Below, piece after piece: positions 3,950 through 18,820 of a stretch of DNA of 60,999 nt. Source of the stretch: a virus (taxonomy: Duplodnaviria; Caudoviricetes). The number at the start of each line of letters is the position of its first letter. The stretch's first letter is position 1. The position numbers and the translations under genes were made by a program. The notes beneath the pieces are model-generated. The model did no database searches, was not told the origin of the DNA, and saw nothing but the letters and a program-made list of their open reading frames with translations. The stretch spans positions 1-60,999 of IMG/VR virus record IMGVR_UViG_3300004281_000002; one strand, written 5' to 3'.

Positions 3950-4029
3950 CACCGCAAACGAGAAGCGGCGCCCAGCCCCATGAAAGCCAGGCGCCGCTTC
4001 CCCGACAGACAGACAGGCGGGTAGGGCGC

Positions 4030-4134
4030 CTATCTGCGCCGCCGCCAGAACCACCGCCGCCATCCTCCCTTCACCGTCCGCCACCCCACCACACACGCGA
4101 GTATCGCCACGAACATTTGCGCATCAGGACTCAT
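4030..4134 (-). CDS. 34-aa TM peptide with Arg/Trp-rich tail
   Basis: MSPDAQMFVAILACVVGWRTVKGGWRRWFWRRRR; ATGA overlap. Confidence 0.6.
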   Translation of the reverse strand: MSPDAQMFVAILACVVGWRTVKGGWRRWFWRRRR

Positions 4135-4385
4135 GCGCTGGAATCCGGCGTAAACTCGAAATAAAAGCGGGGCTGATGCTGGAATGTAAGTGAGCCCTTC
4201 TGCCCATCCGCTTTCCGCGTGACGATCACGAACGGTGCACCAAAGCCCACGACCGAAAAATCCCGCGTCAGCTCCTGCGTGTTCCACACTTGCCCGTACG
4301 CTGCCTCCAGCTGCTCACGCGTCTGCGGGTTGTTGTTGATTAACTCTGTGAGAATCGCGCGTCCGATCTCCGTGGGGTCAGCCAT
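4131..4385 (-). CDS. Conserved hypothetical phage protein (84 aa)
   Basis: YGQVWNTQELTRDFSVVGFGAPFVIVTRKADGQKGSLTFQHQPRFYF; AAGGAG RBS. Confidence 0.85.
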   Translation of the reverse strand: MADPTEIGRAILTELINNNPQTREQLEAAYGQVWNTQELTRDFSVVGFGAPFVIVTRKADGQKGSLTFQHQPRFYFEFTPDSSA

Positions 4386-4737
4386 TGGCCTTCTCCTTGA
4401 GCCAGGCAGCCACGTACAAGTAGCCAGCTGACCCATGCGTGTCGCCCTGCACGACGCCCTTGTTGTCCACGTATAGCGTGAACGTGTGCGCGTCACGCGT
4501 GGACATCGTGTAATCGCGCAGGAGGTCTGCGGCCTTCGCCATCCACGCCTTGTTCGCCCCACCATTCAGCCACTCGACCAGGCGATGCTTCTCTGCCGGG
4601 TCGCCTTGGCAGTCCTGGCGGTCGTACACGAGGTCCACTGTGCCGTCCTGCGTGACGATCGCCCGGCAGCCCCAGGCTGCCTTTGCGGTCTCGGGTATCA
4701 CGTGGTTCAGCCCGAATGACAGCTTGAGCCCTGCCAT
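4378..4737 (-). CDS. Conserved hypothetical phage protein (~119 aa)
   Basis: AAWGCRAIV...GSAGYLYVAAWL; AGGAG RBS. Confidence 0.8.
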   Translation of the reverse strand: MAGLKLSFGLNHVIPETAKAAWGCRAIVTQDGTVDLVYDRQDCQGDPAEKHRLVEWLNGGANKAWMAKAADLLRDYTMSTRDAHTFTLYVDNKGVVQGDTHGSAGYLYVAAWLKEKANG

Positions 4738-4907
4738 CACCAGCTCTCCTGTGCTTGACGCTCGGCCCAGCGGTCCATTCGGTTCTGGTGCCGCACTTCC
4801 TCGCGTCGCGTACGCTGCCGAGTCATCCTCGGCTGCCCATCTTCGTTGTCGTCCGCCACGTCGAACGTGGCTTCCTCTGCTTCGTGCCTCTTGACTGTGT
4901 TCGCCAT
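4737..4907 (-). CDS. 56-aa charged protein, absent from the ORF track (MANTVKRHEAEE...)
   Basis: Hand translation; ACGCAAGGAGG RBS; TGATG coupling to the next gene. Confidence 0.75.
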   Translation of the reverse strand: MANTVKRHEAEEATFDVADDNEDGQPRMTRQRTRREEVRHQNRMDRWAERQAQESW

Positions 4908-5000
4908 AGGTCCTCCTTGCGTATTAGAAGCCCGTACAGCCCTGCCCTGGCCGAGGGTGTGGTCGCACCCTTGCCCGGCCAGGAACCGGGCTCTACCGGG

Positions 5001-5645
5001 CTATACCGAGGTTTCCGTCCCGTTGGACTGGTCGGCCTCGGGCTTCTCGACCTCGACCAGATGCACATGCGCCTGCACCTGAGCCGCGGTCTCCTGTGCC
5101 TTCACCTTCGCGTCCACCGCCGCCGTCACCTGATCGTGCAGGCTGTTGCCCGCTCCCGTCTTGGGACGCCCGAACCGCGAGCCCAGCTGGAACGGCGCAA
5201 TGTACGCGTTGAATTCCTCCTTGGCCTTCGCCGCGACTGCCTCTGCCTGACGCACAGTCGCGCCCAAGCGCTCAACCTCCGTCGTCTCGTCCTCGGTGAG
5301 CGGACGCAGAGCATCATGGTAATGCGACAGCTCACACTTCTCGGTCGGATTCTCCAGCGTGACCAGGAGCGTATGGTTCTTCGCATGAATCCCGCGGGCG
5401 ATACCCTTGCGCGGACGGTAGTTGGTCACCTGCGTGAACGGAATGGCGACCTTCGCCGCCTGCTCCGCCACCTTCCGCTTCAACCCAGCAATCGCGGCCT
5501 CGTACGTGGCACCGTGCGCGATCGTGGTAGTATACGTCAGGGCATCACTCGGGCGATGCGTGTAGAAAGTGCCGTTGCTGGAGCACGACACGACGTACAT
5601 CTGTCCACGTACCTGCGTGCTACCGATCTTCGTAAAATCTGCCAT
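5001..5645 (-). CDS. Hypothetical protein (214 aa, start MADFTK)
   Basis: ACGCAAGGAGG RBS before ATG 5645. Confidence 0.8.
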   Translation of the reverse strand: MADFTKIGSTQVRGQMYVVSCSSNGTFYTHRPSDALTYTTTIAHGATYEAAIAGLKRKVAEQAAKVAIPFTQVTNYRPRKGIARGIHAKNHTLLVTLENPTEKCELSHYHDALRPLTEDETTEVERLGATVRQAEAVAAKAKEEFNAYIAPFQLGSRFGRPKTGAGNSLHDQVTAAVDAKVKAQETAAQVQAHVHLVEVEKPEADQSNGTETSV

Positions 5646-5666
5646 ATGTCCTCCTTGCGTGTGATA

Positions 5667-5706
5667 TGAAAACGAACGCGGCGGGAGACCCATTCCCCCG
5701 CCGCGT
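5667..5706 (-). terminator. Terminator/attenuator-like hairpin
   Basis: ACGCGGCGGG / CCCGCCGCGT stem (5676-5706) followed on the minus strand by TCGTTTTC. Confidence 0.6.
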
Positions 5707-5757
5707 CCCCTGGCCGCAGACGTGTCGTACCCCGATTTGGCGCCTGCGACCAAGCCC

Positions 5758-5871
5758 TCATGCGGATTGCTTCTGCACTGCGCGCCAACAGCGGAAGCAC
5801 AGCCACTGCGCCAGCACGACATGCCAGCGCACGCTGTCGCTGCTGGGGCACAGATCACAGCTGCGTGCCAT
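5758..5871 (-). CDS. 37-aa zinc-finger-like peptide
   Basis: MARSCDLC...WLCFRCW (two CxxC). Confidence 0.55.
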   Translation of the reverse strand: MARSCDLCPSSDSVRWHVVLAQWLCFRCWRAVQKQSA

Positions 5872-5873
5872 GA

Positions 5874-7031
5874 CTACGCCGCCAGCTGCATCAGCTTGCC
5901 GGACCGGCGCTCCAGGTCCACGCGGGTATCTATCCACGCATAATCTCGTGCGCTCGCCGTCAAGCCCTGCATCAGCGTCCACAGGTTGACGACCTCGCCG
6001 CCCTCCTCGCGCTCCGCGTACGCGATGCCCTGCCTGATCTCGCTCGCCGTGAAGCCGTGCTTCTTGCCGAACTCGATCAGCTTGTCCCGGTCAGGCGCCC
6101 CAGGAATCTCGAACGCCTTGGCCTTCTTGATCTTCGCTTCGAGCGGCGCTGCCGGCGCGTTCACGTACGACTTGAGCGTCGGCCCGGCCTCCGCGATGAA
6201 GCGCTCCGGAGCGTTCAGGCTGTGCCGGATGCGCAGCTCGCAGAGCTGCTCCGCGCCCCAAATTTGGTGATTCCCGCACACGCCCCGGAAAAGGAATGTG
6301 GCGAGTCCAAACGTCGCCGCGCCGACCTCACTGTTCCACGCGTAGAAGCCGCGGTGCAGCTGGTCGCGCTCACTGCCGCCATCCACGATCGAGCCGCCGT
6401 CCACAAAGAACATGAACACGTCCCGGTCCGACGCGTACAGACCGCCACGCTTATGCGTGCCGTCCTTGTGCGTGTCCCACACGAGCGGATTCTCGAACTT
6501 GCCGCCCGTCGCATCCACGATGCGCTCCACGAGGTCCACCACATCGATGTCCCAAATCCGCCCGTAGCTGGCGCTCGTGGCCGCGCGCAGCTCGTACGTG
6601 TCGTCGTCCTCCGCGCCCTCCACATCCGGGACCGGCCACGCCAGCAGCCGCGCGTCCGTGCCGTCCTCGGACGCCTGCTTGGCGAAGCCCTCCTGCAAGC
6701 ACGTCACCGCGGTCGGCATGCTCAGCTCGCGGAGATACGTCGCAGGGGCGTGCGCCCGCTGGCACATCTGGCCAAATGACCAGTGCGTCGGCAGGAAGTT
6801 GAAGGGCGAGTTGGGCGCCCCGAAAAAGATGCCCGGCTTGCCCTCGGTCTGTCCCGGCTTGACGTAGTTGGCGGTCTCCACCGTCAGCTTATCGAGCGGC
6901 ACGTCGAACACGCGCGCGGTGCTACGGCGGCTGTCCACCTTCGCCTTCAAGGCAGCCAGGTTCTCGAACCGCTGGTCGCGTGGCCGCGCGTAATACTGGC
7001 GGTTCGGTTCCACAATCGAAACTTCGCTCAT
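5874..7031 (-). CDS. DUF932-family protein (385 aa)
   Basis: THWSFGQ, SYGRIWD, LYASDRDVFMFFVD, RGFYAWNSEVG, VCGNHQIWG, IRH are DUF932 motifs of mobile elements; ACGCAAGGAG RBS at ATG 7031. Confidence 0.85.
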   Translation of the reverse strand: MSEVSIVEPNRQYYARPRDQRFENLAALKAKVDSRRSTARVFDVPLDKLTVETANYVKPGQTEGKPGIFFGAPNSPFNFLPTHWSFGQMCQRAHAPATYLRELSMPTAVTCLQEGFAKQASEDGTDARLLAWPVPDVEGAEDDDTYELRAATSASYGRIWDIDVVDLVERIVDATGGKFENPLVWDTHKDGTHKRGGLYASDRDVFMFFVDGGSIVDGGSERDQLHRGFYAWNSEVGAATFGLATFLFRGVCGNHQIWGAEQLCELRIRHSLNAPERFIAEAGPTLKSYVNAPAAPLEAKIKKAKAFEIPGAPDRDKLIEFGKKHGFTASEIRQGIAYAEREEGGEVVNLWTLMQGLTASARDYAWIDTRVDLERRSGKLMQLAA

Positions 7032-7228
7032 TGGTCGTCTCCTTGCGTCGGGCTGGGAGGCAATGTCGGCACGGCCCGTTCGTTGCCGATTTCCAAGTCT
7101 AACACAGTCCATTCTCCTGTGAGCGGTGGGCTGCCCTCGCACGTGCACAGCGCATCGTACGGGACAGTCCCACCGTCGTCGGACAGTAGCCGCCCACAGT
7201 GGGCGCAGCTACTCGTTGTCGTCTCCAT
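7028..7228 (-). CDS. Small protein with CxxC (66 aa)
   Basis: CAHCG...CTC; ATGA overlap with the DUF932 start. Confidence 0.5.
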   Translation of the reverse strand: METTTSSCAHCGRLLSDDGGTVPYDALCTCEGSPPLTGEWTVLDLEIGNERAVPTLPPSPTQGDDQ

Positions 7229-8129
7229 CGCTCTCGACCTCGGCCATCTGCACCTGCGTGCCACGCGCTACGTGGAAACGCTGCTCCCAGCTCTTGAGCG
7301 TGCTGCCAATCTGCCGGAGCGAGTCGCGCATCGTGCGCAGTGCCGTCTCGACCAACTGCATCGAGACATCGCCGTCCTGGTACCCTTCGAGCAGCTTCCG
7401 CAGCATGGCACCATTGTGCTGCGACAGCGACCGGAAGCGCGCCCGGATCACGCGCTGGGCCTCGGCGCCCTTCTGGTGCTTCTTCTTCCGCCGACCACCC
7501 ATTTCCTTCCGCAGCTGCTCCTCGTCCACATCGTAGCGCGCTGCCGCCTGCGGAATGTTCAAGCTGCCATCCGTGATCGCTTCCATCGCTTGCTTCAGCC
7601 GCGCGCGGAGCCGTTGCATCTGGATCGTCCTGATGTACTTCTTCGCGAGCGACTGCGGAATGGGCAGAATCTCCGCGATTTTGCCGTAGGGCACCTTCTC
7701 CGCGAGCAGCAGCCGAATCGAGTGCTCGATGTCGTCCCGCGTGGGAGGCTTCGGACCACCCGCGTTCGCTTTGAACGCGAGAGCGATCTCCTGCACAGTG
7801 TCACGGGCCGGCGGCACGACCTTCGCCCGCACAGTCTTCCGATCGAGCAGCGCGCCTGCATCCACGCGATGCCGCCCGTCACGCACGATGCATCCGCTGC
7901 CGTCCTCGTTCGGGTACACCGTGATGGGGTCCAGCTCGACCCCGCCGTCGATCAGCTCGGCCAGCATCAAGGTGTGATCCTGGTCGGGCTTCTCACGCAC
8001 GTAGACAGAGACGTGGAGGTCCGACAGCGGGACTTCCACGGTCTGCCCGATCTTGCCCCAATAGCCGGCCCTCGCGATTACCGGCTTTGGAGCGGCAAGC
8101 AATGCCGCTCGCCGTTTCTCGTTCGCCAT
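7209..8129 (-). CDS. ParB/Srx N-terminal-domain protein with HTH-like C-terminal region
   Basis: LDPITV...IVRDGRHRVDA ParB motif; later NIPQAAARYDVD HTH-like segment; first gene behind a consensus sigma70 promoter. Confidence 0.8.
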   Translation of the reverse strand: MANEKRRAALLAAPKPVIARAGYWGKIGQTVEVPLSDLHVSVYVREKPDQDHTLMLAELIDGGVELDPITVYPNEDGSGCIVRDGRHRVDAGALLDRKTVRAKVVPPARDTVQEIALAFKANAGGPKPPTRDDIEHSIRLLLAEKVPYGKIAEILPIPQSLAKKYIRTIQMQRLRARLKQAMEAITDGSLNIPQAAARYDVDEEQLRKEMGGRRKKKHQKGAEAQRVIRARFRSLSQHNGAMLRKLLEGYQDGDVSMQLVETALRTMRDSLRQIGSTLKSWEQRFHVARGTQVQMAEVESDGDDNE

Positions 8130-8181
8130 AGGTCGTATCCTCCTTGCTAGTTTGCGGTCGCCTTGCTACGACCACGGCTGG

Positions 8182-8210
8182 AAATTAGCACAGCGGCTTT
8201 TCGATGTCAA
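8182..8210 (-). promoter_or_regulatory. Sigma70-type promoter TTGACA-17-TAATTT with TG extension
   Basis: Perfect -35 (8205-8210), 17-nt spacer, TGc-TAATTT (-10 at 8182-8187), AT-rich upstream tract; drives the early operon. Confidence 0.85.
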
Positions 8211-8273
8211 GACTATTTTTTGCCAATAGCAGAATAATCCGAATCACCGAGACAGTCTTGTCGGGTGCCACAA

Positions 8274-8837
8274 TTATTGGGCAGTTATTACCTGCCGGTT
8301 CCAAAATGCTTCTGGCGAGACTTGCATATCCCATACAGCGTCCGCGTACGTCGCTAGGAGCCGCAGGCGCAGCGCGCCGTGTCCGGTGGCTTTCCCACAC
8401 GGCGGTACCTCGTAGCACCCGCGTGGTGGCGTCTCCCGCAGAACAGTGGCTGCTGTCGCAAGCGCCACGAGATGCCCGATCGCAAATGAGGGGCGCTGCG
8501 TCAGACGCAGGGCTCGCCGCCACTTCGACCGTAGCACAGTGCCCGTAACTCCGAGTTTAATCGCACAGAGATAGTCAGCCAGCGCCCAGCTCAGGACAGG
8601 CAGGCGCCCAAATCCTCCACACGACGGACAGGCCCAGGCCCGGTCGCGCGGCACGAAGCGATAGGCCCACTTCCCACAGTAGGAACACGGCATCATCAAC
8701 TTCCCCTGCATCCTACATGCCGTGGGGAACCACCCCTTTGCCGCGTCGCGGATGCGGGCCATGTATTCGGCCCGTTCCCTCCGAGATTCACACTGCTTTA
8801 TTGCCTCCGTGTGCACTCGGGTGAGCGCCTGAACCAT
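8274..8837 (-). CDS. Hypothetical zinc-ribbon protein
   Basis: CSYCG...CPSCGG; start uncertain. Confidence 0.45.
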   Translation of the reverse strand: MVQALTRVHTEAIKQCESRRERAEYMARIRDAAKGWFPTACRMQGKLMMPCSYCGKWAYRFVPRDRAWACPSCGGFGRLPVLSWALADYLCAIKLGVTGTVLRSKWRRALRLTQRPSFAIGHLVALATAATVLRETPPRGCYEVPPCGKATGHGALRLRLLATYADAVWDMQVSPEAFWNRQVITAQ

Positions 8838-9000
8838 CGCCCGGTATGCCAGCGCCACATGCCAGACAGTCGGGACCGTCGCCGGCCATTCGACCCGGGC
8901 ACGGGCGAGCGCCAATGGGAGCCGGCGCAGCCCCCGGTGATCCGACCAGTGCCGACAGGACCGGCAGCGCTGAATGCGCCCGTCCTGGATAGCGCCGTCG

Positions 9001-9031
9001 AGAATGAGAAGGTGCCGCCCCGAGCGGCACC
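9001..9031 (-). terminator. Intrinsic terminator candidate
   Basis: GGTGCCGC / GCGGCACC stem (9011-9031) followed on the minus strand by TTCTCATTCT. Confidence 0.55.
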
Positions 9032-9042
9032 AGACCGCTTGC

Positions 9043-9192
9043 CTAGCGCGAGGTCGCGACGTGCAGCACTTCGGCCAGGGCAATGAAGAACGCCCCGAGC
9101 CAACCAATCTGTACCCGCGGTGCCGGGACGCCAGCCGTGGCGAGCGCGAAGCAAATCAACGCGACGAGCCAACACAGGAAGTCAATGCCCAT
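9043..9192 (-). CDS. 49-aa two-TM membrane protein, absent from the ORF track
   Basis: Hand translation MGIDFLCWLVALICFALATAGVPAPRVQIGWLGAFFIALAEVLHVATSR; TGATG coupling. Confidence 0.75.
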   Translation of the reverse strand: MGIDFLCWLVALICFALATAGVPAPRVQIGWLGAFFIALAEVLHVATSR

Positions 9193-9584
9193 CAGGCACC
9201 CTCTGGTTTGTAGTCCGCGAGCAGCCCTTCGCCCTCGTCCGAGGCGGGAACATTGGTCACCCCGCGGTGCAGCTGAACCAGGACCTTCGGCCCCAAAGCG
9301 AGCGCGATGCGGTCTCGCACCCCCGGCGGGGTATCGGGGTCAGTCAGTCGCCGGGCCAAGTAGCCAAGTGCCATCACCCCCACGTCGGCCAGAGCAACTG
9401 CCAGGTTGGTCTCCTTCGGCAGCTCTTCGAGCGGCTGGTTCTTATAGCGTAGCCACCAGTAGCCCAGGCGCTCGACCTCGGCGTCAGTAGGGATCGGTGA
9501 GCCATTCTGGACCCGACCTACGACCATGAGTGATCGCTTGGAGGAGCGACCAGAACCGCGCGAGCCCTTCTTCGTTCCACCCAT
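9192..9584 (-). CDS. Hypothetical helical protein
   Basis: Plausible composition; tight packing; start uncertain. Confidence 0.6.
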   Translation of the reverse strand: MGGTKKGSRGSGRSSKRSLMVVGRVQNGSPIPTDAEVERLGYWWLRYKNQPLEELPKETNLAVALADVGVMALGYLARRLTDPDTPPGVRDRIALALGPKVLVQLHRGVTNVPASDEGEGLLADYKPEGA

Positions 9585-9900
9585 TACGGCTCCAGGTGCG
9601 GCCACAGGCGACGCCCGCAAGTACCGCAGCGTGAATCGCCCAGGCGCGCTGAATCTTCTCGTGACAGGTCGCGCAGACCGTCACGAGGTTCTCGGGCCAG
9701 TCCCTTCCACTGCGCGAGCGCGGAATCACGTGGTGCACGGTCAGCTGCCGCAGGGAGCGGCACACCACACAGCGCCAGGAGTCGCGCTCGCAGATGTCGG
9801 TACGGAGCAGCCCCCAGGCTACTCGCGATCCTGTTCGACGTACCCGACGCGCGGCCCGGACCAGAGCCGCGTCTGCTGGCGCTGTTGGCGGCGTTCCCAT
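9484..9900 (-). CDS. HNH endonuclease
   Basis: ERDSWRCVVC...LTVHHVIPRSRSGRDWPENLVTVCATCH is a canonical HNH signature; start uncertain. Confidence 0.85.
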   Translation of the reverse strand: MGTPPTAPADAALVRAARRVRRTGSRVAWGLLRTDICERDSWRCVVCRSLRQLTVHHVIPRSRSGRDWPENLVTVCATCHEKIQRAWAIHAAVLAGVACGRTWSRNGWNEEGLARFWSLLQAITHGRRSGPEWLTDPY

Positions 9901-10130
9901 CGCTTGCGTTGAGCCACGACATCGAGCACGTCTACCACGTAGGCGCCGGGGAAGACGGACTTGGCGAGGATCACGTCCTGCCAGACCTGGAGCGGCACCC
10001 ACTTCCGAGAGAGTAGCGGAATCTCGGTCACATGGAAGGCCGGCAGCCACGGGGCCAACCCCGGCGGATAGGGCGTGTCGTAGAGACAGAGCAGCCCTAG
10101 GCCGGGGCTATCGACCCAGCGGATCATCAT
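9819..10130 (-). CDS. Hypothetical protein (103 aa)
   Basis: ATGA overlap with the upstream gene. Confidence 0.6.
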   Translation of the reverse strand: MMIRWVDSPGLGLLCLYDTPYPPGLAPWLPAFHVTEIPLLSRKWVPLQVWQDVILAKSVFPGAYVVDVLDVVAQRKRWERRQQRQQTRLWSGPRVGYVEQDRE

Positions 10131-10450
10131 GCCGCTTTGGCGTTGGCTGGGGCCTTGCTGCGGGCGCGATGGCGGCGCCGCCTACGCTTAGTCGAGGCGA
10201 CCGCAGCAACGCCGCTCGACTTGGGCGGACGCCCGCGCCGCACGACGTGGACCTCCTCGTACTGCGAGCGGAACTCGGTGTCACTTACGGTCTCCTGCGT
10301 GCCATCGGGGTGCGTGAGCAGCCAATCCCCCACGGTCACATGCTGCACTTCCGTGGGGTCGGCTATCTCGTCAGAGGACCCCGAGATCGTCAGCGGTCTC
10401 GTGAATTGGATCGCGTCGACTTCCCGAATCTTGGTCCGAAATCTCGGCAT
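10127..10450 (-). CDS. PGDYG-like small protein with AT-hook-like basic tail
   Basis: EVDAIQFT...VGDWLL...F...YE, then RRGRPPK and RRRRRHR. Confidence 0.7.
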   Translation of the reverse strand: MPRFRTKIREVDAIQFTRPLTISGSSDEIADPTEVQHVTVGDWLLTHPDGTQETVSDTEFRSQYEEVHVVRRGRPPKSSGVAAVASTKRRRRRHRARSKAPANAKAA

Positions 10451-10694
10451 GAGTGTTTCCCTTCTGCTCTGCGGGCGTCGTCCACCCGAGCGTGAGCTGT
10501 GCTGCTTCGATGGTAATGACGACTATCTGCTCTTTTTGCAATAGGGCGAGCGCCTGTGTGCCCTCCGCGTCCACCATGTCGCCCTCGCACTGAAGCTGGA
10601 GGGTGGAATGGACCTCACCGCGATCGTTGAATTTCTGCGTCATTGTCGCCCGCTTGATCGCTGCCCGCCAGGTCAGCTTCGCCTCGTTCGCCAT
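10371..10694 (-). CDS. Hypothetical protein
   Basis: GGGAGG RBS; the C-terminal part overlaps the next gene. Confidence 0.65.
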   Translation of the reverse strand: MANEAKLTWRAAIKRATMTQKFNDRGEVHSTLQLQCEGDMVDAEGTQALALLQKEQIVVITIEAAQLTLGWTTPAEQKGNTHAEISDQDSGSRRDPIHETADDLGVL

Positions 10695-10757
10695 GCCTTC
10701 TGCCTCCCGCGATATGCACGTTGCCGTTCCCGTGCCCGCCGTTTCAGAAACTGCTCC

Positions 10758-11084
10758 TCAGTCTCGCCTCGCAAGAGCACCCCGCACCGTGGACACTTCG
10801 GTCCCGTCCGCTCCTTGACCGCTTTCGGCATCAGTCGTCGGTGTGCTCCACGTCCCCAGGAATTCCTGGCTCACTGCCGTGATCCGCGCCCCCAGCCGGG
10901 GCGAGCCCGTCACCCGGGCTGCCACTTCCAACGCTTCGCTCAGGATGTCCAGCACCCCCGCCGGGAGTGCCATCTGCACCACGAACACGGTCGTCTCCCC
11001 CGTCCCCTGCCGCGCTACCACCCGCATGCCCTTCGGGAGCGGACAACAGAGCGACAGCGGGCGGTCCAGAGTCGGGGCTGCCAT
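10758..11084 (-). CDS. Hypothetical protein (108 aa, MAAPTLDR...)
   Basis: GAGGAGG RBS; overlaps the low-complexity tail of the helicase ORF. Confidence 0.6.
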   Translation of the reverse strand: MAAPTLDRPLSLCCPLPKGMRVVARQGTGETTVFVVQMALPAGVLDILSEALEVAARVTGSPRLGARITAVSQEFLGTWSTPTTDAESGQGADGTEVSTVRGALARRD

Positions 11085-12957
11085 CGTCACCCTCCTCGTA
11101 CTCCAGCTCGGCCACCGGAATGATGTGCCGCTGGTTGGTCGCTTCGAGCGTCTCCAATGCGTATCGTGACACGTCGTGGGCTTCTGGATCACCCGACAGC
11201 GCAAGCACGAGCGCGTCACGCGCCCGGCTGACTGCCACGTAATACAGCCGCCGCTCCTCGCCCTCAGGCTCGCCCCGATGGTGCGGCAGGATGTCCTCCT
11301 CCAAACCGACCAAGAGCACGATCGGCCATTCCAAACCCTTCGCCCGGTGGATGGTGCTCAGCGTGATCGAACCAGCCGCAGTCTCCACCCGCTTCGGATG
11401 GCGCCGGCACTGATCCACGAACGCCACGAATTCCCCGAGCGTGCGCGTGCCCGCGCCTTCCACAAGGCTATCCAGATTCTCGTCCACGTCATTGTCTTCC
11501 GACTCCTCCTGCTCCGCGAGCCCGTCCTTGTGCACCCAATTCCGGTAGCCGACCGGGCCATTGAGCACGTAGTGCAGGATGCCCGCAGCCCGCGTGTCGT
11601 GACTGTAGCGTCGAAGCTGACAGCAGATCGACCACAGCTCGTCCGCCCGCTCACTCATGTAGCGCTGCGACCAGCGGAACGCGCTCGGCCCGCTCGTCTC
11701 CCACTTCGGCCAACCGCCCTGCGCCTGTAATGAATCCAGCCAGACACGTCCTAAGTAACGGGAGGGCCGGTTGTAGATGCGTTCGAGGGATGCCAGCCGA
11801 TCGAGCCCCGCAGCGTACTCCAGGTACGCCATCACGTCCTTGATCTCCGCCCGGTCGTAAAATGAGAAGCCCCCCGCCACCACGTAGGGCACACCGAGCC
11901 CGACGCAGACCGCCTCGCACTCGCCTAGCACAGCATGCGTGCGGCCAAGCACCACCACATCGGTCGGCGGCACCTTGGCCGCCATCAGCAGCCCGAGCGA
12001 CCGCTCGAACGAATGCCGGAGTAACCGTTCCCAGGTGCCACCCACCACGATCGGCAGAATCGGTGTGCCTTCCTCACGCGCCTGCGAGACGTTCACGTGT
12101 TCCTTCTTCCCGTGCAGCACGCGGTTCGCCGTCGTGATGATCTGCCCGCGGCTACGGTAGTTCCGGCTGATCGTGTAGGTGGCAAACGGCGCTTGATCGA
12201 AGCGAGTTTCGAGGGATTCGAGCATGCCGTCCTGCGTGGCTCCACGCCACGTGTAAATCGACTGCCCCGGATCACCCACGATGTAGAGCTGCGTGCTCGC
12301 TCCCACCAGATGTTCGAGGAGGTCCCACTGACACGTGCTCGTATCCTGGGCCTCGTCCACGATCAGGTGCGCGTAGCGCCGGAGCCACTTCTGGTGACGC
12401 CCCGGATCGCTCGCAAGCAGCGCCGTGGGCTGAAGCACGAGGTCGTCAAAGTCCCACAGGCCCTCGTCGTCGTGCAGGATGCGCTCGTACTCGTAGCCGA
12501 CTTCCGCGATGTTCGCCGGATACGCTACCCCGAACGCACGGGCACGGCCGATCTTTGCCTTCACGTACGTGAGTGAGTCGCGGCACCCGGTTGCCTTGAT
12601 CGCACGCAACACCAAGGTGCCCCGCTTGCGGTCGTCCGCGATCGGACGGCCCATGCGCTCGAATTGGAGTATCCGGTAGCCGAGCGAGTGGATGGTACCG
12701 ATCTGCGCGTCGATCGCGGTCGTGCCTACGCGCCGTTTAATCTCCTCCGCGGCGCGCTTGGAGAACGTGACCACGCAGAGGTCACGGGGCGGTACGCCCT
12801 GTGCCTGCACGAGATAACGCACCCGAGCCGCGAGGCACGTCGTCTTGCCCGTACCCGCACCGGCCCGCACACGCACGAAGCGCTCGGGGGCCATCGCGGC
12901 AGCCCGCTGCTCATCGTCGAGTCGAAGATCACTGGTACCGGACATCGGACGCTCCAT
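10831..12957 (-). CDS. UvrD/PcrA-like SF1 DNA helicase
   Basis: AGAGTGKT (Walker A), VTFS, IVDEAQD, VGDPGQSIYTWRGA, NYRS, STIHRAKGLEW, EERRLYYVAVSRAR. Confidence 0.97.
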   Translation of the reverse strand: MERPMSGTSDLRLDDEQRAAAMAPERFVRVRAGAGTGKTTCLAARVRYLVQAQGVPPRDLCVVTFSKRAAEEIKRRVGTTAIDAQIGTIHSLGYRILQFERMGRPIADDRKRGTLVLRAIKATGCRDSLTYVKAKIGRARAFGVAYPANIAEVGYEYERILHDDEGLWDFDDLVLQPTALLASDPGRHQKWLRRYAHLIVDEAQDTSTCQWDLLEHLVGASTQLYIVGDPGQSIYTWRGATQDGMLESLETRFDQAPFATYTISRNYRSRGQIITTANRVLHGKKEHVNVSQAREEGTPILPIVVGGTWERLLRHSFERSLGLLMAAKVPPTDVVVLGRTHAVLGECEAVCVGLGVPYVVAGGFSFYDRAEIKDVMAYLEYAAGLDRLASLERIYNRPSRYLGRVWLDSLQAQGGWPKWETSGPSAFRWSQRYMSERADELWSICCQLRRYSHDTRAAGILHYVLNGPVGYRNWVHKDGLAEQEESEDNDVDENLDSLVEGAGTRTLGEFVAFVDQCRRHPKRVETAAGSITLSTIHRAKGLEWPIVLLVGLEEDILPHHRGEPEGEERRLYYVAVSRARDALVLALSGDPEAHDVSRYALETLEATNQRHIIPVAELEYEEGDDGSPDSGPPAVALLSAPEGHAGGSAAGDGGDDRVRGADGTPGGGAGHPERSVGSGSPGDGLAPAGGADHGSEPGIPGDVEHTDD

Positions 12958-13156
12958 CCGGATCGGACTCCGGGGTTTCTGCGTGCACCCGCGCCAGATA
13001 CTCCTCGGCACTGTTCAGGTGCGTGAGCGCCAGCTGCAACGCCGCGCTCGCTTCGGTCCGGTACGTCCGGGCCTTCGTGTACTCCAGGACTGCCAGACAC
13101 AGGAACGCCGCTGCCGTCGACACGCACAGCGACGCCAGTGCATACACGGTTGCCAT
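12929..13156 (-). CDS. Small N-terminally membrane-anchored protein (75 aa)
   Basis: Hydrophobic N-terminus; GCAAGGAGG RBS. Confidence 0.7.
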   Translation of the reverse strand: MATVYALASLCVSTAAAFLCLAVLEYTKARTYRTEASAALQLALTHLNSAEEYLARVHAETPESDPDGASDVRYQ

Positions 13157-13180
13157 AGTGTTCCTCCTTGCTGCCCAGCC

Positions 13181-14794
13181 CTACGCCGGGCCACCCGCCG
13201 CTGCCGCCATCGTGCGTTCGAGCATCACGCCAAACACCTGGGGGTCGGTAATCACCGAGCGCGCCTGAGCCAACAGCTGACGCAACTCGGGCATCGGAAT
13301 CTGCTCGATCATGTCCACGCCACGGGACTTCGTGAGCAGTAGGATCACCTTGTCCTTCAGGTGTGTCGTCGCGGTCTCTGTCAGCACCGCGTTCAGTAAC
13401 TGCTCCTGCTCCGACCCCGAGGTCAAGGCCGGCTCAGCCGCCTGCGACTCCAACAGGAGAATCAGCTCCGCCCCCTCTGCCTCGTTCATGTACCGCAATT
13501 CGACCGGCTGATTCGACGCGAGCCACGGACGCTGCCGAGCTTCGAGCCACTTGCGCGCGAGGCCCTTCAGCTCCTGGAAGTTGGGCTGTCCTGCCCGGTC
13601 GGTCGTGAGATCACCGAGCCGCTTCAGCTGCGGCTTCGTGATCCCCGCCGTCTTCACCACCGTCACCTTGCCGTCCGGTCCCAGGTGCTCGAAGTAGTGC
13701 ACCATCGCCGGAGGTCCTGCCGGCGGGAGTGGCGTCACCGCAGCCGGCGGCTCGGCTGAAATCGGAGAACTCGGCGCTGACTGGTCCAGCCCGTTACCCT
13801 CGGACGCCGCGTCCGCACCCTTTGCGGTAGGCTCGGACGCCGGCTCCTCCTCAGGCTCGACCTCAGGCTCGGCTTCCGGCTCGACTTCACCAGGCGGCTC
13901 AGGAGCCTCGGGCGCGGGCTGGTCAGGCTCCTGGGCCTCGGGCGGCGGCTGGAGGTCTCTCAAGGCGTCTGCGGGCGCCGCAGGCGGTGGCGTGACCGGT
14001 GGCGTGACCGGTGGCATATCCACCGGATGCTCCTCTACGTGGGTCTCGCCTCGGACCTCGCCTGGCGCATAGGCCCCGAGGATCACGTCGGGGAAGACGG
14101 CGCGCACAGCCTCGGTCGAGCACCGGGCGAGCAACATAGCCCGCGGGTACTTCCGCCAGCTCTCGTCGATCAGCCCAGCCCGCTGAGCATCCGCCAGCGT
14201 ATAGCGGTGCTCCCCCAGATAATCGGGCCGGTCCCCGTCCCCGTAGCGAATCGCCTGAAGCACACACTCCTCGTTCGAGAGTGTCTTCGGCACCAGCAGC
14301 CCGCGCCCGGAGCGCCCGACCAACGCCCGGCACAGCTCGGCCTGCATTTCGATCTTCCCCTCGGGCGTCCAGTACAATCCCTGGACCGACTCCGTGGGAC
14401 CGATCCCCAACTCCATCCCGCGCACCAGCAGGATCGTCAGCTGCACTTCCGTGAGATCACGTCCGAGCCCACCCACCTTAAAGAGCCGGGCCATGTCCTG
14501 GAGGTTGCTCATCATCTGGACTGCCCGTTCGATCGTCGGCTGTGACGGGCGCTTCGCCGCGCGCACGCGCGCCATCTTCGCCTTCGCTTCCTTCGTCCCC
14601 GCGTGCTGCGAGGGGTCCTCACCCGGTGCCGTCACCAGGGTCTGTTGCTTTGGTCGTCGTGGCATTTTCGGTTTCTTCTCCTTCCGCCGGCTCATGTCCC
14701 GGCACGCCTTGCACTCCACCCGCCCGGTCGGACGCGTGTACGTGCCCACCCGCTCCAAATCGTGGCCTCGGCTACAAACAGTGTGTACATCCAT
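13181..14794 (-). CDS. RecT/Red-beta-like ssDNA annealing protein with N-terminal Zn ribbon and Pro/Glu-rich linker
   Basis: GMELGIGP...YTLADAQRAGL...WRKYPRAMLLARC...FPDVILGAY. N-terminal CSRGH...CKAC. Start MDVHT is coupled (TAATG) to the exonuclease stop. Confidence 0.8.
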   Translation of the reverse strand: MDVHTVCSRGHDLERVGTYTRPTGRVECKACRDMSRRKEKKPKMPRRPKQQTLVTAPGEDPSQHAGTKEAKAKMARVRAAKRPSQPTIERAVQMMSNLQDMARLFKVGGLGRDLTEVQLTILLVRGMELGIGPTESVQGLYWTPEGKIEMQAELCRALVGRSGRGLLVPKTLSNEECVLQAIRYGDGDRPDYLGEHRYTLADAQRAGLIDESWRKYPRAMLLARCSTEAVRAVFPDVILGAYAPGEVRGETHVEEHPVDMPPVTPPVTPPPAAPADALRDLQPPPEAQEPDQPAPEAPEPPGEVEPEAEPEVEPEEEPASEPTAKGADAASEGNGLDQSAPSSPISAEPPAAVTPLPPAGPPAMVHYFEHLGPDGKVTVVKTAGITKPQLKRLGDLTTDRAGQPNFQELKGLARKWLEARQRPWLASNQPVELRYMNEAEGAELILLLESQAAEPALTSGSEQEQLLNAVLTETATTHLKDKVILLLTKSRGVDMIEQIPMPELRQLLAQARSVITDPQVFGVMLERTMAAAAGGPA

Positions 14795-15678
14795 TAGTCG
14801 TCCCATCCCGTGAAGAGATCGATCAGCTTGGGGTCTACCCGCGTGAGCCGCTGGTCCCGCTCGGTGGACGCCGCCGCGTAGCAGAGCGGCACCATCTCGC
14901 ACGTGCCCATCCGAAAACACGCCCGCGGGTTCTGCCAGAACTGCCCCTGCTTGATCGCTTTGTCGATCGCGATGGCCGACGCGAGAAACTGATCCGTCAC
15001 GTGCTCCGGACGGCGCGGCACGAGCAGCCACTGAATGCGCGGATTCGACCCCCGGATCATGCGGCACAGCCCGAGCTGCGCTACCACGCGTCCGTGGGCT
15101 TCCTGGGCCAGCTGGTAGCCCGTCAGCTGCGGGTCCAGCTCCACGGACAGGGGCGGGATGTCCCGGTCCCCCGTCTTGAAGTCGAGCACGGTGGGCAGGT
15201 AGTCGCTAAAGAGGTCCTGGCGCACGTGGCAGTAGAGATCGGGAATCGACAGCTCCTCCACCTGGGGTGCCAAGAAGAACCGGATGTCCTCCTGCGTGAA
15301 CATCTGCCCCGGCTCCGGCACCAGGATGCGCTCCCGAATCTCGGGCACAATCACCTTCGCGAGCGCCGTGCCCTGCTCCCCGAGCGCCTCGAACGTCACC
15401 CGCGTCGACCACTCGATCGTGGTCGGGTCAAGCCAGTACCAGGCGCCTTGGAACAGACGCACGGCTTCGGCGGAGTCCGTGACCAGCCCCGCCGCGATGC
15501 ACGTGGCGAGGTTCTCGAAGATGCGTCCGAACACCCACTGTCCCTTGTCGTACTTCGGGCGCCAGCCTTGCAGGTAGTGCAGCAGCCATTTGTAGGGACA
15601 CGTCATGTACGTGTCCCGCTGCGAACAGCTGCGCCGGAAATCGTAGTTCGGTTCGTTAAGAAACGCGCTTGCCATCAT
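14794..15678 (-). CDS. PD-(D/E)XK exonuclease (RecB/AddB/Cas4-like, 4-Cys)
   Basis: CPYKW, IPDL, VLDFKTG, QLTGY and C-terminal C-x5-C-x5-C; adjacent to the RecT-like gene. Confidence 0.85.
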   Translation of the reverse strand: MMASAFLNEPNYDFRRSCSQRDTYMTCPYKWLLHYLQGWRPKYDKGQWVFGRIFENLATCIAAGLVTDSAEAVRLFQGAWYWLDPTTIEWSTRVTFEALGEQGTALAKVIVPEIRERILVPEPGQMFTQEDIRFFLAPQVEELSIPDLYCHVRQDLFSDYLPTVLDFKTGDRDIPPLSVELDPQLTGYQLAQEAHGRVVAQLGLCRMIRGSNPRIQWLLVPRRPEHVTDQFLASAIAIDKAIKQGQFWQNPRACFRMGTCEMVPLCYAAASTERDQRLTRVDPKLIDLFTGWDD

Positions 15679-16171
15679 GGTCCCAATCCTCCTTGCGTCC
15701 GTAGTCTGCGATCAGGAGCGCTTCCGCGGCGCCCTCCTGCGACGCCTTGAGTGCTCCCACCTTGGGCCAGCGCTCCTGCACCATCAGGCGCGAGGCCCGC
15801 TTGTCCTGCTTGAGTAACCCCTGTGCCCGCTTCCACACCACCGGGTAGACCCAGCGGATGGGCAGGTTCATCCCGACCAGCATGCCGTGCCACAGCCCGA
15901 CGCCGTATCCCGTCTTGTAGACCGCCATCGCATGCTGCCCTGGTCGCGTGCCCCCGCGCTCGATCCAGACGGCACGGACTCCCTGTGCCTTCCAGGTGGC
16001 GAGGTAGGTCCAGGCCACGGCGAGATCGTATTCGTGCTGCTGCCGCTTGCCGTTCTGCACCACCGTGGCCGGCATGGTGCACAGCTCGATCCAGTCGGGG
16101 TCGCTCACACTGAGCACGCCAAATCCCCCCGAAATCCCTGGATCGATTCCGATGATTAAATCCTTCGGCAT
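15656..16171 (-). CDS. RuvC-like Holliday junction resolvase
   Basis: IIGIDPGISGG, VWIE, PVVWKR, AEALLIA. Confidence 0.9.
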   Translation of the reverse strand: MPKDLIIGIDPGISGGFGVLSVSDPDWIELCTMPATVVQNGKRQQHEYDLAVAWTYLATWKAQGVRAVWIERGGTRPGQHAMAVYKTGYGVGLWHGMLVGMNLPIRWVYPVVWKRAQGLLKQDKRASRLMVQERWPKVGALKASQEGAAEALLIADYGRKEDWDHDGKRVS

Positions 16172-16181
16172 TTATGGTGGA

Positions 16182-16211
16182 GTTTTATCACAAATGCCGG
16201 GGGAATTTCAA
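16182..16211 (-). promoter_or_regulatory. Sigma70-like promoter for the recombination operon (TTGAAA-18-TAAAAC)
   Basis: TTGAAA (16206-16211) and TGaTAAAAC (-10 at 16182-16187), just downstream of the terminator and ~10 nt before the RuvC-like ATG. Confidence 0.55.
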
Positions 16212-16217
16212 TGCCCC

Positions 16218-16253
16218 ACAAAAAGAAGGGGCCAGCCCGACCAGGCTGGCCCC
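16218..16253 (-). terminator. Intrinsic terminator (3' end of the candidate sRNA)
   Basis: GGGGCCAGCC / GGCTGGCCCC 10-bp stem (16228-16253) followed by TTCTTTTTGT on the minus strand. Confidence 0.85.
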
Positions 16254-16315
16254 ACGCAAGGAGACCTCGGGTATCACCCCGAGCACGGATCGACCTATGG
16301 CGAAGCGGACCCGTT
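16218..16315 (-). ncRNA. Candidate trans-acting antisense sRNA (anti-RBS / anti-start-codon)
   Basis: Three hairpins. The first hairpin presents UUCGCCAUAGGUC(G) and the linker GUCUCCUUGCGU is single-stranded. Both are complementary to translation-initiation regions of phage early/middle genes. Confidence 0.65.
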
Positions 16316-16348
16316 ACCCCTCCTCATACCACAGATCGAAGGTCGGGG

Positions 16349-16621
16349 CTAGGGCTTCCCCCGCCAGGGGTTTACTTCGTCCCACGGGGCATCGGGGGCG
16401 GGGGAACGGCGGGGGGCGGGGCGCCGGGGTCGTTGCTGGGGGTATTGGGCACGAAGCCAGCGGTGTTCGAGCCGACGCCGCCAGCCCTTGGGTGGCGGCC
16501 AGGACACACCCCACTCGGCCAGCAAGGCTCGGGAGAAGCCCGAGTTGGCGGTGCTCCGAGCCTTGATCTCCTCGGGGCTCACCAGTGGCAGTCCCCGTTT
16601 CGTACGGAGCCGGGGTTCCAT
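16349..16621 (-). CDS. Small conserved phage protein (WGVSWPPPKGW motif)
   Basis: EEIKARSTANSGFSRALLAEWGVSWPPPKGWRRRL; GAGG RBS. Confidence 0.75.
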   Translation of the reverse strand: MEPRLRTKRGLPLVSPEEIKARSTANSGFSRALLAEWGVSWPPPKGWRRRLEHRWLRAQYPQQRPRRPAPRRSPAPDAPWDEVNPWRGKP

Positions 16622-16624
16622 GCC

Positions 16625-17311
16625 TCATGCCCTATACGCCTGTGCCTGTGTTGCCGACAAGAGCATCTCTGTGTGCCCGTTCCGCTGCCGGGTCAGCCAA
16701 TGCCCCAGGCAGCCCCGGCGCACCCGGCGCCAGCGGCGGGGGAGGGGAGCCGTAAGCATGCTCGTACGCTCGATCGTAGTCATGCTGGTCATGCTCAGAT
16801 CGACTCGATCGACTCTATCGACTCTATCGACTCTATCGACCGTAAGAGTAGAACGCTGAGACGCTCGTGTGTCCGTGCCCTCCGGGCACTTGGTATCGCA
16901 AGATTCCAGGGCGATCTTGCGATACGGTCCATCGATCTTGCCATACGGTCCAGGCAGGTACCAGTGCTCCACGCCGAACTGCCCGGACTTGTTGTAGTAT
17001 TCCCGGCGCTCCCAGCCGGTGCCAGCGTAGAGCACGCGGCGTTTCAGCCGGGGAGCGTAGGTACTGATCGACCCTCGTGGCAGCCGGATCACGTAAACCG
17101 GCTTTACCCCACGCTGCCAGGTGTAACGCCCGACCTCGATCCGGTGCTCCTGCCTGAGCCGCTGGATCGCCCACTGCACCGTGCGCTCCGGCATCCCGAG
17201 CGTGGCGCCGATCTGCCCACTCGCCAGGGAGATCGCCGTGCCGTCCTGCTCCCGGATGCGCTCAGCCAGGTACGCCAGCACCGCCTCCGCCGCCTTCGAC
17301 TGCTTGACCAT
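16625..17311 (-). CDS. Putative replication initiator (N-terminal winged HTH; internal DNA repeats)
   Basis: SLASGQIGATLGMPERTVQWAIQRLRQEHRIEV wHTH; GGGAGAGG RBS at ATG 17311; tandem and direct repeats in the 3' half, as in lambda O-type genes. Confidence 0.65.
   Translation of the reverse strand: MVKQSKAAEAVLAYLAERIREQDGTAISLASGQIGATLGMPERTVQWAIQRLRQEHRIEVGRYTWQRGVKPVYVIRLPRGSISTYAPRLKRRVLYAGTGWERREYYNKSGQFGVEHWYLPGPYGKIDGPYRKIALESCDTKCPEGTDTRASQRSTLTVDRVDRVDRVDRVDLSMTSMTTIERTSMLTAPLPRRWRRVRRGCLGHWLTRQRNGHTEMLLSATQAQAYRA
16799..16840. repeat. 9-bp tandem repeat ATCGACTCT x ~4.7
   Basis: atcgactcg atcgactct atcgactct atcgactct atcgac; encodes (VDR)n. Confidence 0.95.
16893..16952. repeat. 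Iteron-like repeats ATCTTGCSATAC (two direct, 21-bp period; one inverted)
   Basis: CGATCTTGCGATACGGTCCA (16912-16931), CGATCTTGCCATACGGTCCA (16933-16952), and an inverted GTATCGCAAGAT (16893-16904). Confidence 0.85.
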
Positions 17312-17361
17312 GCCTCTCCCTTCCACTTGCGGAGGGGCGCGGAGGCTGCTATTGGCGTATT

Positions 17362-17450
17362 CACGATCTGCCTCTGCCCTACGGGGCCCAGCCTCGCGGC
17401 GCCACCACCGCCGTACAGCCGCCCGGTTCGCGCCGGGCGGTTTCGTTTCT
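17362..17450 (+). ncRNA. Candidate counter-transcribed RNA opposite the initiator leader
   Basis: Plus-strand TTGCGG-17-TATTGG (17327-17355) and a plus-strand terminator CCGCCCGG/CCGGGCGG + TTTCGTTTCT (17419-17450), with no credible plus-strand gene between them. Confidence 0.45.
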
Positions 17451-17611
17451 AGCTCATGAACGCTCCATAGCAGAATTACGTGCTCTTGACGAATCCCGTG
17501 GTAGTTGGCACAGGGAATCTCGGGGCACCCGCGGTCCACACCCGCGCCGGGAGCTGCCAGCCTAGTAGGGGCTAGGCAGCTCCCACCCACCGCGTGCTAC
17601 AAGGGTTTTCC

Positions 17612-17905
17612 ATGCCACGGGCAGAAGGCGTGCGCTGCCGCAACTGCGGCGTGCACATCCTCTGGGGCCGGCACCGCGACGCCGATCGCTGGGTCTCGCT
17701 CGAACCGCACCTGGATGGTACCTGGGTCCGCGACGAGCACAAGGTCTGCTGGAAGATCGGCGTGGACGAGCAGACCACGCTGCCGCGCTACGTCCCGCAT
17801 ATGTTCCTCTGCGCCAAGCACAAGAAGGCCGCGAACGCCGACGAGCGGAAGCCCGTGAAGCCGCGAGCAATGCAGCTCGATCTCGCGTTGCCGACGAAGC
17901 GCTAG
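17612..17905 (+). CDS. Small Zn-finger protein (97 aa), possibly near-leaderless
   Basis: CRNCGVHILW...YVPHMFLC pattern typical of phage Zn-ribbon proteins; TGcTACAAG just upstream. Confidence 0.75.
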   Translation: MPRAEGVRCRNCGVHILWGRHRDADRWVSLEPHLDGTWVRDEHKVCWKIGVDEQTTLPRYVPHMFLCAKHKKAANADERKPVKPRAMQLDLALPTKR

Positions 17906-18615
17906 TAGGGACCGGCGATCAGGAACTTGCGGACCAGCTCGCGGAACGGGCCGTCCTGCTGCCCGAGCCAGGTGAGCACGTCCGCCATCACGTCGGGAGC
18001 GATCCGCGAGTCCCTGGTGTTGTAGCAGCCACCCCAGCAGGGATCGAACGTGACCTGGGCATCGATCCGCGAGGCCCACGAGAGCACGAACAGCTCCGCG
18101 TGCACGGTGCGCAGCTGCTGAATGGCTTCCGTCCAGCTCTCCCCGAGCGCGAGCCAGCGCTCCTCGACCTCGGCTGGCATCACGGAGTCCGGGTAGCTGT
18201 CCGCAATCGTTGCCAGCTGGTCGTCAATCTGGCAGAGCACCGCGATGCACTGGCGGTGAATCTCCTCGACCTCCTGGCGCCGGAACCGCATCTGCTCCCG
18301 GAGCAGCGTGCTCAGCCGGTCACTCACCCGCGGTGGAGGCGGCAGCTGCTTGCCGGCGAAGTGCATGCCCGTGACCTCGCGCGGCAGCGCAGGCGATGGT
18401 GGCGGCGAATCATCCAGGCTGAGCGCCTGCATGAGCCCCCTCACTCCGCCGCCACCACAGCCCGCGAAGCAGTACCACTTCTCCGCGTCGTAGCTGAATG
18501 CCGTCACGTTGTCGCCCTTGTGAATCGGGCAGCGCGTGCGGAAGCCGCTGCCCTCACGGTGCCCCAGGTCCCAGCCGACGCGCGTGAGCACGTCAGCGAT
18601 CGTCGTCTCGTCCAT
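17902..18615 (-). CDS. CHC2 zinc-finger (primase Zn-binding domain) protein without a TOPRIM domain
   Basis: CPIHKGDNVTAFS...WYCFAGCGGGG; helical C-terminus. Confidence 0.85.
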   Translation of the reverse strand: MDETTIADVLTRVGWDLGHREGSGFRTRCPIHKGDNVTAFSYDAEKWYCFAGCGGGGVRGLMQALSLDDSPPPSPALPREVTGMHFAGKQLPPPPRVSDRLSTLLREQMRFRRQEVEEIHRQCIAVLCQIDDQLATIADSYPDSVMPAEVEERWLALGESWTEAIQQLRTVHAELFVLSWASRIDAQVTFDPCWGGCYNTRDSRIAPDVMADVLTWLGQQDGPFRELVRKFLIAGPY

Positions 18616-18805
18616 CGTCGTCGTCCCCTTCGGTCACGCCTGCGAGCCGGGCCAGCTCGTCGCGGATGACGCCGTAGAGGTAGCGCTCGATTTGCTGCGC
18701 CGTCGCCATGCCGGCGCGGCCCCGCTCCTTCCCGAGTCCGAGCCGCGCCTCGTGCGAGACCACGACGGAGAGATCGAGTCGGAGCGGGTCAGCCTTCCGT
18801 CTCAT
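18593..18805 (-). CDS. Hypothetical protein (70 aa)
   Basis: Fills the operon gap; plausible composition. Confidence 0.5.
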   Translation of the reverse strand: MRRKADPLRLDLSVVVSHEARLGLGKERGRAGMATAQQIERYLYGVIRDELARLAGVTEGDDDDGRDDDR

Positions 18806-18820
18806 CGAGGTCCACGGACA

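Follow-up and report, generated by a model that had tools for sequence, protein, structure and literature searches.

A candidate RNA of a soil phage that mirrors start sites, and its best predicted partner, the start region of gene 7209..8129

Trans-acting small RNAs (sRNAs) that occlude ribosome-binding sites (RBS), some of them through C/U-rich seeds complementary to the Shine-Dalgarno (SD) sequence, form a known general class. In phages P1 and P7, the c4 antisense repressor RNA of the immI region pairs over the RBS of the phage's own mRNA; c4 is processed out of a transcript that also holds its target, and it acts on a single site downstream. To our knowledge, only a few of the small RNAs encoded by phages are understood, and hardly any of those in uncultivated soil phages. 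A further relevant system is found in Cluster K mycobacteriophages, where Pope et al. 2011 (PMC3203893) describe Start-Associated Sequences (SAS), 13-bp copies of GGGATAGGAGCCC with up to two mismatches located 3-7 bp upstream of many starts. According to that report and PMC12699233, the motifs lie in the non-structural half of the genome together with a single inverted copy situated off gene starts, and the latter source still described SAS function as unverified in 2025. The candidate described here shares features with the first two systems: like RBS-occluding sRNAs, it is a short structured RNA with a Rho-independent terminator and a single-stranded seed against the SD/AUG of several mRNAs, and like c4, its exposed segments are complementary to the RBS of the phage's own mRNA.

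The window, that is, the whole stretch of DNA analysed, is an entire IMG/VR virus record of 60,999 bp with 64.8% GC and a CheckV completeness of 97, in which nearly all genes lie on the minus strand. Among the sequencing runs listed, the phage matched soil-metagenome DNA contigs only, and no RNA run. Four runs (X1, X2, X5 and X6) carry an identical genotype over window positions 4000-20000 on long contigs without differences; no sequence difference was found at three sites in that range, and these runs therefore offer no natural variants for covariation. On one run contig, 62.8 kb long, window 4000-20000 falls at 36.6-52.6 kb, which points to a probable circular permutation of the record with respect to that contig. 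Searches of the phage collection by blastn with 15600-17000 and 7000-9200 gave no match, and viral_contigs yielded no close relatives with the RuvC protein, the protein of 7209..8129 or two exact sRNA patterns. A tRNA search of the window was negative, and an endolysin search of the Atlas for a host clue returned GH19 clusters, mostly viral.

The candidate RNA lies downstream of a 90-aa gene (16349..16621) and is followed by the RuvC gene (15656..16171). Its parts are as follows:

16222..16318, minus strand: candidate sRNA of about 95 nt
16313-16286, minus strand: hairpin 1, with the loop CGCCAU (16302-16297) inside UUCGCCAUAGGUCG (16304-16291)
16283-16266, minus strand: hairpin 2 of the candidate sRNA, from the predicted fold
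16265-16254, minus strand: stretch GUCUCCUUGCGU, single-stranded in the predicted fold
16253-16228, minus strand: terminator hairpin followed by a U-run, the 3' end of the candidate sRNA
16323..16331, minus strand: weak extended -10-like motif TGGTATGAG, 20 nt upstream of CGCCATAG

The predicted fold has an energy of -49.4 kcal/mol (z -3.6), and none of 200 shuffles was as good. The terminator comprises an 11-bp stem with nine GC pairs plus TTCTTTTT, at 16253-16219. The -10-like copy in the window ends in G and does not fit the pattern TGNTANNNT. Rfam returned no match at the gathering score in the whole window; the best sub-threshold families were anti-hemB and mmgR (E 0.27 and 1.7), which scored 15.4 bits (gathering score 49.5) and 13.9 bits (gathering score 41). 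Two observations concern the neighbouring genes. RuvC lacks a Shine-Dalgarno sequence and is preceded, about 14-16 nt before the start codon, by a conserved TGTGATAAA (window 16172-16200; 9975-10002 and 9976-10002 in the relatives L015 and L017), a hint of a promoter from which the RuvC mRNA would start, with a very short leader or none, right after the sRNA terminator. On the other side, the HTH-like gene 16625..17326, a member of the operon ending at the sRNA, contains about 4-5 tandem copies of a GTCGATAGA-like 9-nt repeat at 16800-16850 (minus strand).

Relatives of the locus were sought through RuvC, and alignment A1 of this protein retrieved 35 metagenome loci, the closest four at 55% (L015 and L017), 57% (L016) and 51% (L018) identity. 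In all four, CGCCATAG and, after a gap of 5-10 nt, (G)TCTCCTTGCA lie between the preceding stop codon and RuvC; each carries a hairpin presenting CGCCAU, the complement of AUGGCG, together with the anti-SD stretch CUCCUUGC. The pattern GCCATAG-N(3-33)-CTCCTTGC occurs in 5 of 49 loci, namely the window's own and these four, and CUCCUUGC and CGCCAUAG are invariant in all five sequences. A GC-rich terminator with a T-run and a stem of 12-15 bp follows the element in L015, L016 and L017, and L018 has a GC hairpin without a clear U-run. The gene upstream of the element varies: in the window it encodes the 90-aa protein, whereas L015-L017 have a zinc-ribbon protein there and L018 the HTH protein. 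Eleven more distant RuvC loci (L019-L029) are without the element, and in them RuvC abuts or overlaps the upstream gene. The RuvC alignment found only loci of at most 32% identity in viral_contigs and none in genome_contigs. A RuvC homologue of 54% identity (P0004) was seen on a contig of about 63 kb.

The predicted structure recurs along with the motifs. RNAalifold on the MAFFT alignment (A2) gave a poorly supported 5' consensus with a positive covariation term; the window's hairpin 2 is an insertion that misaligns hairpin 1, and we therefore used separate folds and an alignment of hairpin 1 only (A3). The folds leave the anti-SD seed single-stranded and the loop exposed, with CGCCAU in a hexaloop in four of the five sequences when these are folded separately. 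In the inner stem of hairpin 1, 90% of the alignment cells pair, compared with 28-50% in slid controls; one pair appears as GC, AU and CG, and among the four distinct sequences the covariation score was reached by 31 of 500 shuffles. Upstream, TGNTANNNT stands 15-25 nt before CGCCATAG in the four relatives and in none of 52 other loci, and TGCTAYNNT stands 19-21 nt before it in the same four (4 of 56 loci), the window's TGGTATGAG being a weaker version. From these comparisons, the sRNA locus looks real, and we conclude that selection apparently maintains a structured RNA element in which an anti-AUGGCG loop is combined with an anti-SD stretch. In the same genomic spot across a phage clade, a compact RNA would thus mirror an entire RBS, SD and AUG alike.

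The predicted partners of this RNA are start sites on the minus strand; they are listed here with the gene and the promoter-like site that belong to the first of them:

8122..8147, minus strand: translation initiation region of gene 7209..8129, the predicted sRNA pairing site, with 14 + 4 + 7 bp and a 1-nt bulge at 8136
7209..8129, minus strand: target gene of 306 aa, weakly 'ParB-like' (phrog_1033)
8182..8210, minus strand: promoter-like site seen by eye, TTGACA (8210-8205), a 17-nt spacer ending in TGC, and TAATTT (8187-8182)
7021..7048, minus strand: start site of gene 5874..7031 (phrog_1362, weak DUF932), ranking second genome-wide
4900..4923, minus strand: start site of the small ORF 4737..4907 (56 aa), where 24 contiguous nt pair with the two sRNA modules (13 + 11)
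15671..15698, minus strand: start site of the PD-(D/E)XK exonuclease gene 14794..15678, with the 10-nt seed match ACGCAAGGAG

At the first of these sites the plus strand reads TTCGCCATAGGTCG-T-ATCC-TCCTTGC, so the 14 nt, the 1-nt bulge and the blocks of 4 and 7 nt given in the preliminary description are exact to the letter; the sequence is unique in the window at up to three mismatches. Its placement at a start region also holds: the minus-strand reading, GCAAGGAGGATACGACCTATGGCGAA, contains an AAGGAGG SD, a 10-nt spacer and an ATG, which is the true start of the minus-strand gene 7209..8129 (CAT on the plus strand at 8127-8129; AUG 8129-8127). The SD occupies 8145-8139 (plus-strand CCTCCTT at 8139-8145) within the extended motif GCAAGGAGG. 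Other parts of that description fared less well. The label 'ParB-like' agrees with one weak PHROG match (residues 29-122 to phrog_1033, E 1.8e-7), but searches of Pfam (E<=0.01) and of PDB sequences (E<=0.1) gave nothing for the protein. A promoter-like site can be recognised by eye, about 50 nt upstream of the AUG, as TTGACA-17-TAATTT with a TGC extension, but a consensus promoter scan did not call it because the -10 hexamer matches at 3 of 6 positions only; the designation 'first early gene', built on this site, was a guess. So was the idea of polarity on an early operon, which is not needed since the second gene of the unit, 5874..7031, has a strong match of its own.

Some observations bear on the surroundings of this gene. 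A strong terminator-like hairpin (15 pairs, 11 of them GC) follows gene 5874..7031 at window 5674-5708 on the minus strand, so the promoter-like site near 8200 would drive a two-gene unit; the two best predicted sRNA partners are the start sites of both genes in this unit. Adjoining the promoter-like site on its upstream side, at about 8280-8700 on the minus strand, is a probable zinc-ribbon gene (MMPCSYCGKW...CPSCGG) that the codon-based gene caller missed. A CSYCG zinc-ribbon gene also stands directly upstream of the sRNA in L015-L017.

Co-folding pairs sRNA positions 15-28 with 8122-8135, AUCC with 8137-8140 and UCCUUGC with 8141-8147, so that in the predicted complex both sRNA modules pair with one continuous mRNA stretch. 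The ddG is -29.5 kcal/mol (-29.2 to -29.5 across scorings), with hairpin 2 and the terminator intact; the flanks of the 14-mer lie largely within the stem of hairpin 1 and would have to be freed, which speaks against pairing. Among 3,047 tiled 60-nt windows of minus-strand RNA (mean -7.2, sd 3.6), 8122-8147 ranks first, and it is also first by ddG among the scored start-site windows. By prediction, the site is thus the top partner of the candidate RNA in the whole genome. The runners-up are 7000-7079 (-28.1), the exonuclease start (-25.5), window 40880 (-25.2) and the small ORF (-24.1). At 7021..7048, the match consists of a 12-nt anti-SD segment, ACGCAAGGAGAC, and partial anti-start pairing, at the second gene of the 7209..8129 unit. 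Most of the best 10 tiled windows overlap gene starts, as judged by reading the listed coordinates, the windows at 40880 and 51400 being without a matched start. When complements of at least 10 nt to the 92-nt RNA are ordered by length, start sites take the first three places (14, 13 and 12 nt), and one other 12-nt complement lies within a coding region. Energies from duplexfold did not discriminate among targets and were set aside.

Our main reading, to which we assign a probability of roughly 0.4, is that this phage RNA blocks access to the SD and AUG of a set of non-structural genes of the same phage and that 8122-8147 is its strongest site here. A conserved RNA of about 95 nt would be transcribed from 16318 to 16222 on the minus strand. 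Its first module, the hairpin loop CGCCAU with its flanks, is complementary to AUGGCG and surroundings, and its second, the single-stranded CUCCUUGCGU, to the extended SD ACGCAAGGAG of non-structural genes. On the 7209..8129 mRNA the duplex would span roughly -18 to +8, with hairpin 2 extruded in a three-way junction, and would keep the 30S subunit off the mRNA and so lower translation of 7209..8129. Similar start sites, those of 5874..7031, 4737..4907, 14794..15678 and 5001..5645, might be repressed as well. Production of the RNA, its pairing in vivo and repression through that pairing are steps that we infer. Taken by parts, we consider it somewhat probable that the RNA is a functional anti-start-site element, and hold only tentatively that 8122-8147 is a genuine target overall. 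A wider form of the model, in which the extended SD ACGCAAGGAG, in many cases with (C)UAUGGC after it, labels the non-structural genes as a class and one antisense 'master' copy serves as a global translational switch, is rather unlikely; if true, the sRNA could, for example, shut off translation of early and middle genes. The main reading amounts to a concrete model, open to test, of how a phage might control a class of its genes through RNA, and its practical value here is a ranked target list headed by 8122-8147, together with the limits of the match statistics.

Those limits follow from the start sites themselves. The motif GCAAGGAG has 14 copies on the minus strand and two on the plus strand; 12 of the 14 stand just before gene starts, all within 1-20.6 kb, the non-structural half, and one of the two plus-strand copies is the sRNA locus. 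In its extended form, (A)CGCAAGGAG(G), the SD motif occurs at 12 gene starts between 493 and 20608 on the minus strand and at none beyond 21 kb, and the other minus-strand copies, at 25620 and 2757, are not at a start. A standard 16S 3' end would leave the three bases ahead of AAGGAG unpaired, and the motif therefore looks like a class-specific start-associated motif. The relatives have the same start-motif layout.

Since GCAAGGAG precedes 12 gene starts, the anti-SD part of the match is generic, and its use as specific evidence in the preliminary description was overstated. The same family of sequences undoes the argument from two independent matches: the two best 'targets' are near-copies that share GACCTATGGCGAAC, 14 nt, with each other. 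More generally, identical blocks of 10-16 nt recur among the start sites of the GCAAGGAG class, reaching at least 14 nt in 4 of 10, and the 14-nt block falls within this range. An exact copy of the 14-mer lies on the minus strand in the sRNA locus (16291-16304), and a copy with one mismatch at 4900-4913; at up to two mismatches there are three matches, compared with 0.27 expected, and none of 100 shuffles reached three. Significance was assessed with 5000 dinucleotide shuffles of the 92-nt RNA and of a 59-nt core. The probability of a perfect complement of at least 14 nt to any of 74 start-site windows was 0.0018 for the full RNA and 0.0006 for the core, whereas against the whole minus-strand transcriptome it was 0.040 and 0.025. 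The statistics are thus weaker than the preliminary description claimed, and genome-wide the 14-mer is only marginally significant. Three other minus-strand segments elsewhere also have complements of at least 14 nt to some start-site window. If the RNA is viewed as an inverted member of the start-site family, its match to one member over 14 nt is ordinary.

This family resemblance leads to the first competing explanation, in which the RNA is real but its anti-SD action is generic, with the neighbouring exonuclease start or the GCAAGGAG class at large as its conserved partner. The complement of the RNA would itself belong to the start-site family, the match to 7209..8129 would be unselected, and the 14 nt would be a by-product; we judge this unlikely, though more probable than the other alternatives. 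In the available flanks of the relatives no homologue of 7209..8129 was found, as the contigs end before that gene, and the flanks of the anti-start loop differ from those of the window; the longest complements in the available relative DNA are at the RuvC start in L016 (12 nt) and the start of the HTH gene in L015 and L017 (9 nt). The exonuclease start, just downstream of RuvC, ranks 2, 2, 1 and 3 by ddG in the four relatives, which places it among the top three partners in 4/4 (with -25.5 in the window); it is the only predicted target recurring in all relatives and the only cross-genome signal. A compensatory difference also links it to the seed: the window pairs G with C (sRNA ..UUGC-G, exonuclease C-GCAAGG), and L015, L016 and L018 pair A with U (..UUGC-A, T-GCAAGG). 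That start sites share blocks of up to 16 nt without any RNA link is equally in keeping with such a regulator. On the other hand, the covariation is a single evolutionary event, the first SD copy in L017 has diverged, and the window's exonuclease site, at -25.5 kcal/mol in the tiled scan, reaches only -13.3 when 71 nt are used, a sign that the ranking is context-dependent. A role limited to the SD would moreover leave the conserved CGCCAU loop unexplained.

The element might instead act in cis, as the 3' end of the upstream mRNA (16625..17326, 16349..16621) or of a read-through product, pairing with a start site within that molecule or simply stabilising the 3' end, rather than as a diffusible sRNA. 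Its position between a stop codon and a terminator suits this explanation, as do the weak promoter-like motif in the window and, in L015 and L017, a directly upstream gene start, GCAAGGAGGCT-CTATGGC, that is complementary to both modules. The start sites of the window's upstream genes are without a match, however, and the element stays in place in relatives while the upstream gene differs; a conserved -10-like motif precedes it in the four relatives, and the strong terminators argue against read-through. We regard a cis role as improbable.

A similarly low probability attaches to the absence of any RNA function, with an inverted relic copy of a start site lying beside a terminator and a match that reflects common descent or chance. 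The complement of the RNA does equal the start site of the small ORF plus a 26-nt hairpin insertion, and both the marginal genome-wide significance of the 14-mer and the three other equally long start-site complements elsewhere are compatible with a relic. Such a remnant would hardly be expected to keep two short motifs in place at 51-57% RuvC identity while the surrounding non-coding DNA and the upstream gene changed, nor to accumulate stem changes that preserve pairing.

Slightly less probable still is a protein-bound start-associated site, recognised by a phage or host protein, of which GCAAGGAG and its surroundings would be the regular form and the inverted copy another DNA or RNA site. 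The motif is confined to the non-structural half and is longer than standard anti-SD pairing, and for the Cluster K sequences PMC3203893 leaves the choice between an RNA and a protein partner open. A protein site has no need, however, for an anti-start loop, a covarying stem or a terminator context, and the orientation is strictly antisense in 5/5 genomes. Finally, the plus-strand GCAAGGAGA ... ATGGCG at 16256-16302 is very unlikely to be the real start of a small gene: an SD-to-ATG spacing of 11-12 nt would be usable in the relatives, but it is 33 nt in the window, the ORFs from the inverted ATG (89, 80, 80, 49 and 44 aa) share no sequence across the five genomes, the window ORF has the worst codon score of these (LLR -35.0 compared with -4.3 for the sense gene) with GC2 above GC3, and the 90-aa sense protein of 16349..16621 recurs letter for letter on four contigs and has two partial homologues.

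Cluster K offers the nearest parallel in layout. Within 25000-60835 of Mycobacterium phage Anaya there are 16 plus-strand SAS copies and one minus-strand copy; the latter falls in a 385-nt non-coding gap whose sense strand reads GCGCGG-CCTCCTATCC-CCGCGC, where CCTCCTATCC forms the apical loop of a long hairpin (region fold z -5.4). The inverted SAS of K1 lies at 34871-34883 of locus L050 (Anaya, record 59870-59882), with L051-L056 as the further loci considered; it falls in a 10-nt loop closed by a 6-bp stem without mismatches (GCGCGG/CCGCGC), on top of a longer hairpin. Conservation of this region extends to 182 records of Mycobacterium phages; seven aligned phages keep the stem and have a C/U-rich but varying loop, and in other subclusters the loop is likewise C/U-rich but different. 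By analogy, an antisense-copy logic might explain the single inverted SAS of Cluster K, for which this hairpin is a lead, not a demonstration. A word search of the open-access literature, judged by titles and abstracts, found no antisense RNA against start-associated motifs, which is not proof of absence. The inverted-copy model offers an experiment on why some phages carry repeated start motifs in one orientation together with a single inverted copy.

The likeness to the SAS is an analogy of layout only, in motifs before non-structural starts and a single inverted copy. The motif itself is different, GCAAGGAG(G) in the window and the 13-mer GGGATAGGAGCCC in Cluster K, and the 13-mer is not enriched in the window, with 2 matches at two mismatches compared with 1.89 expected. 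No extended inverted-repeat element was seen in the window. Unlike c4, the candidate has its best sites 8-11 kb away, in other transcription units, and several of them, and it has no Rfam match. Compared with RBS-occluding sRNAs in general, the candidate is phage-encoded and directed at genes of the phage itself, and it has two parts, an anti-AUG loop and an anti-SD stretch, which jointly reflect a complete start site.
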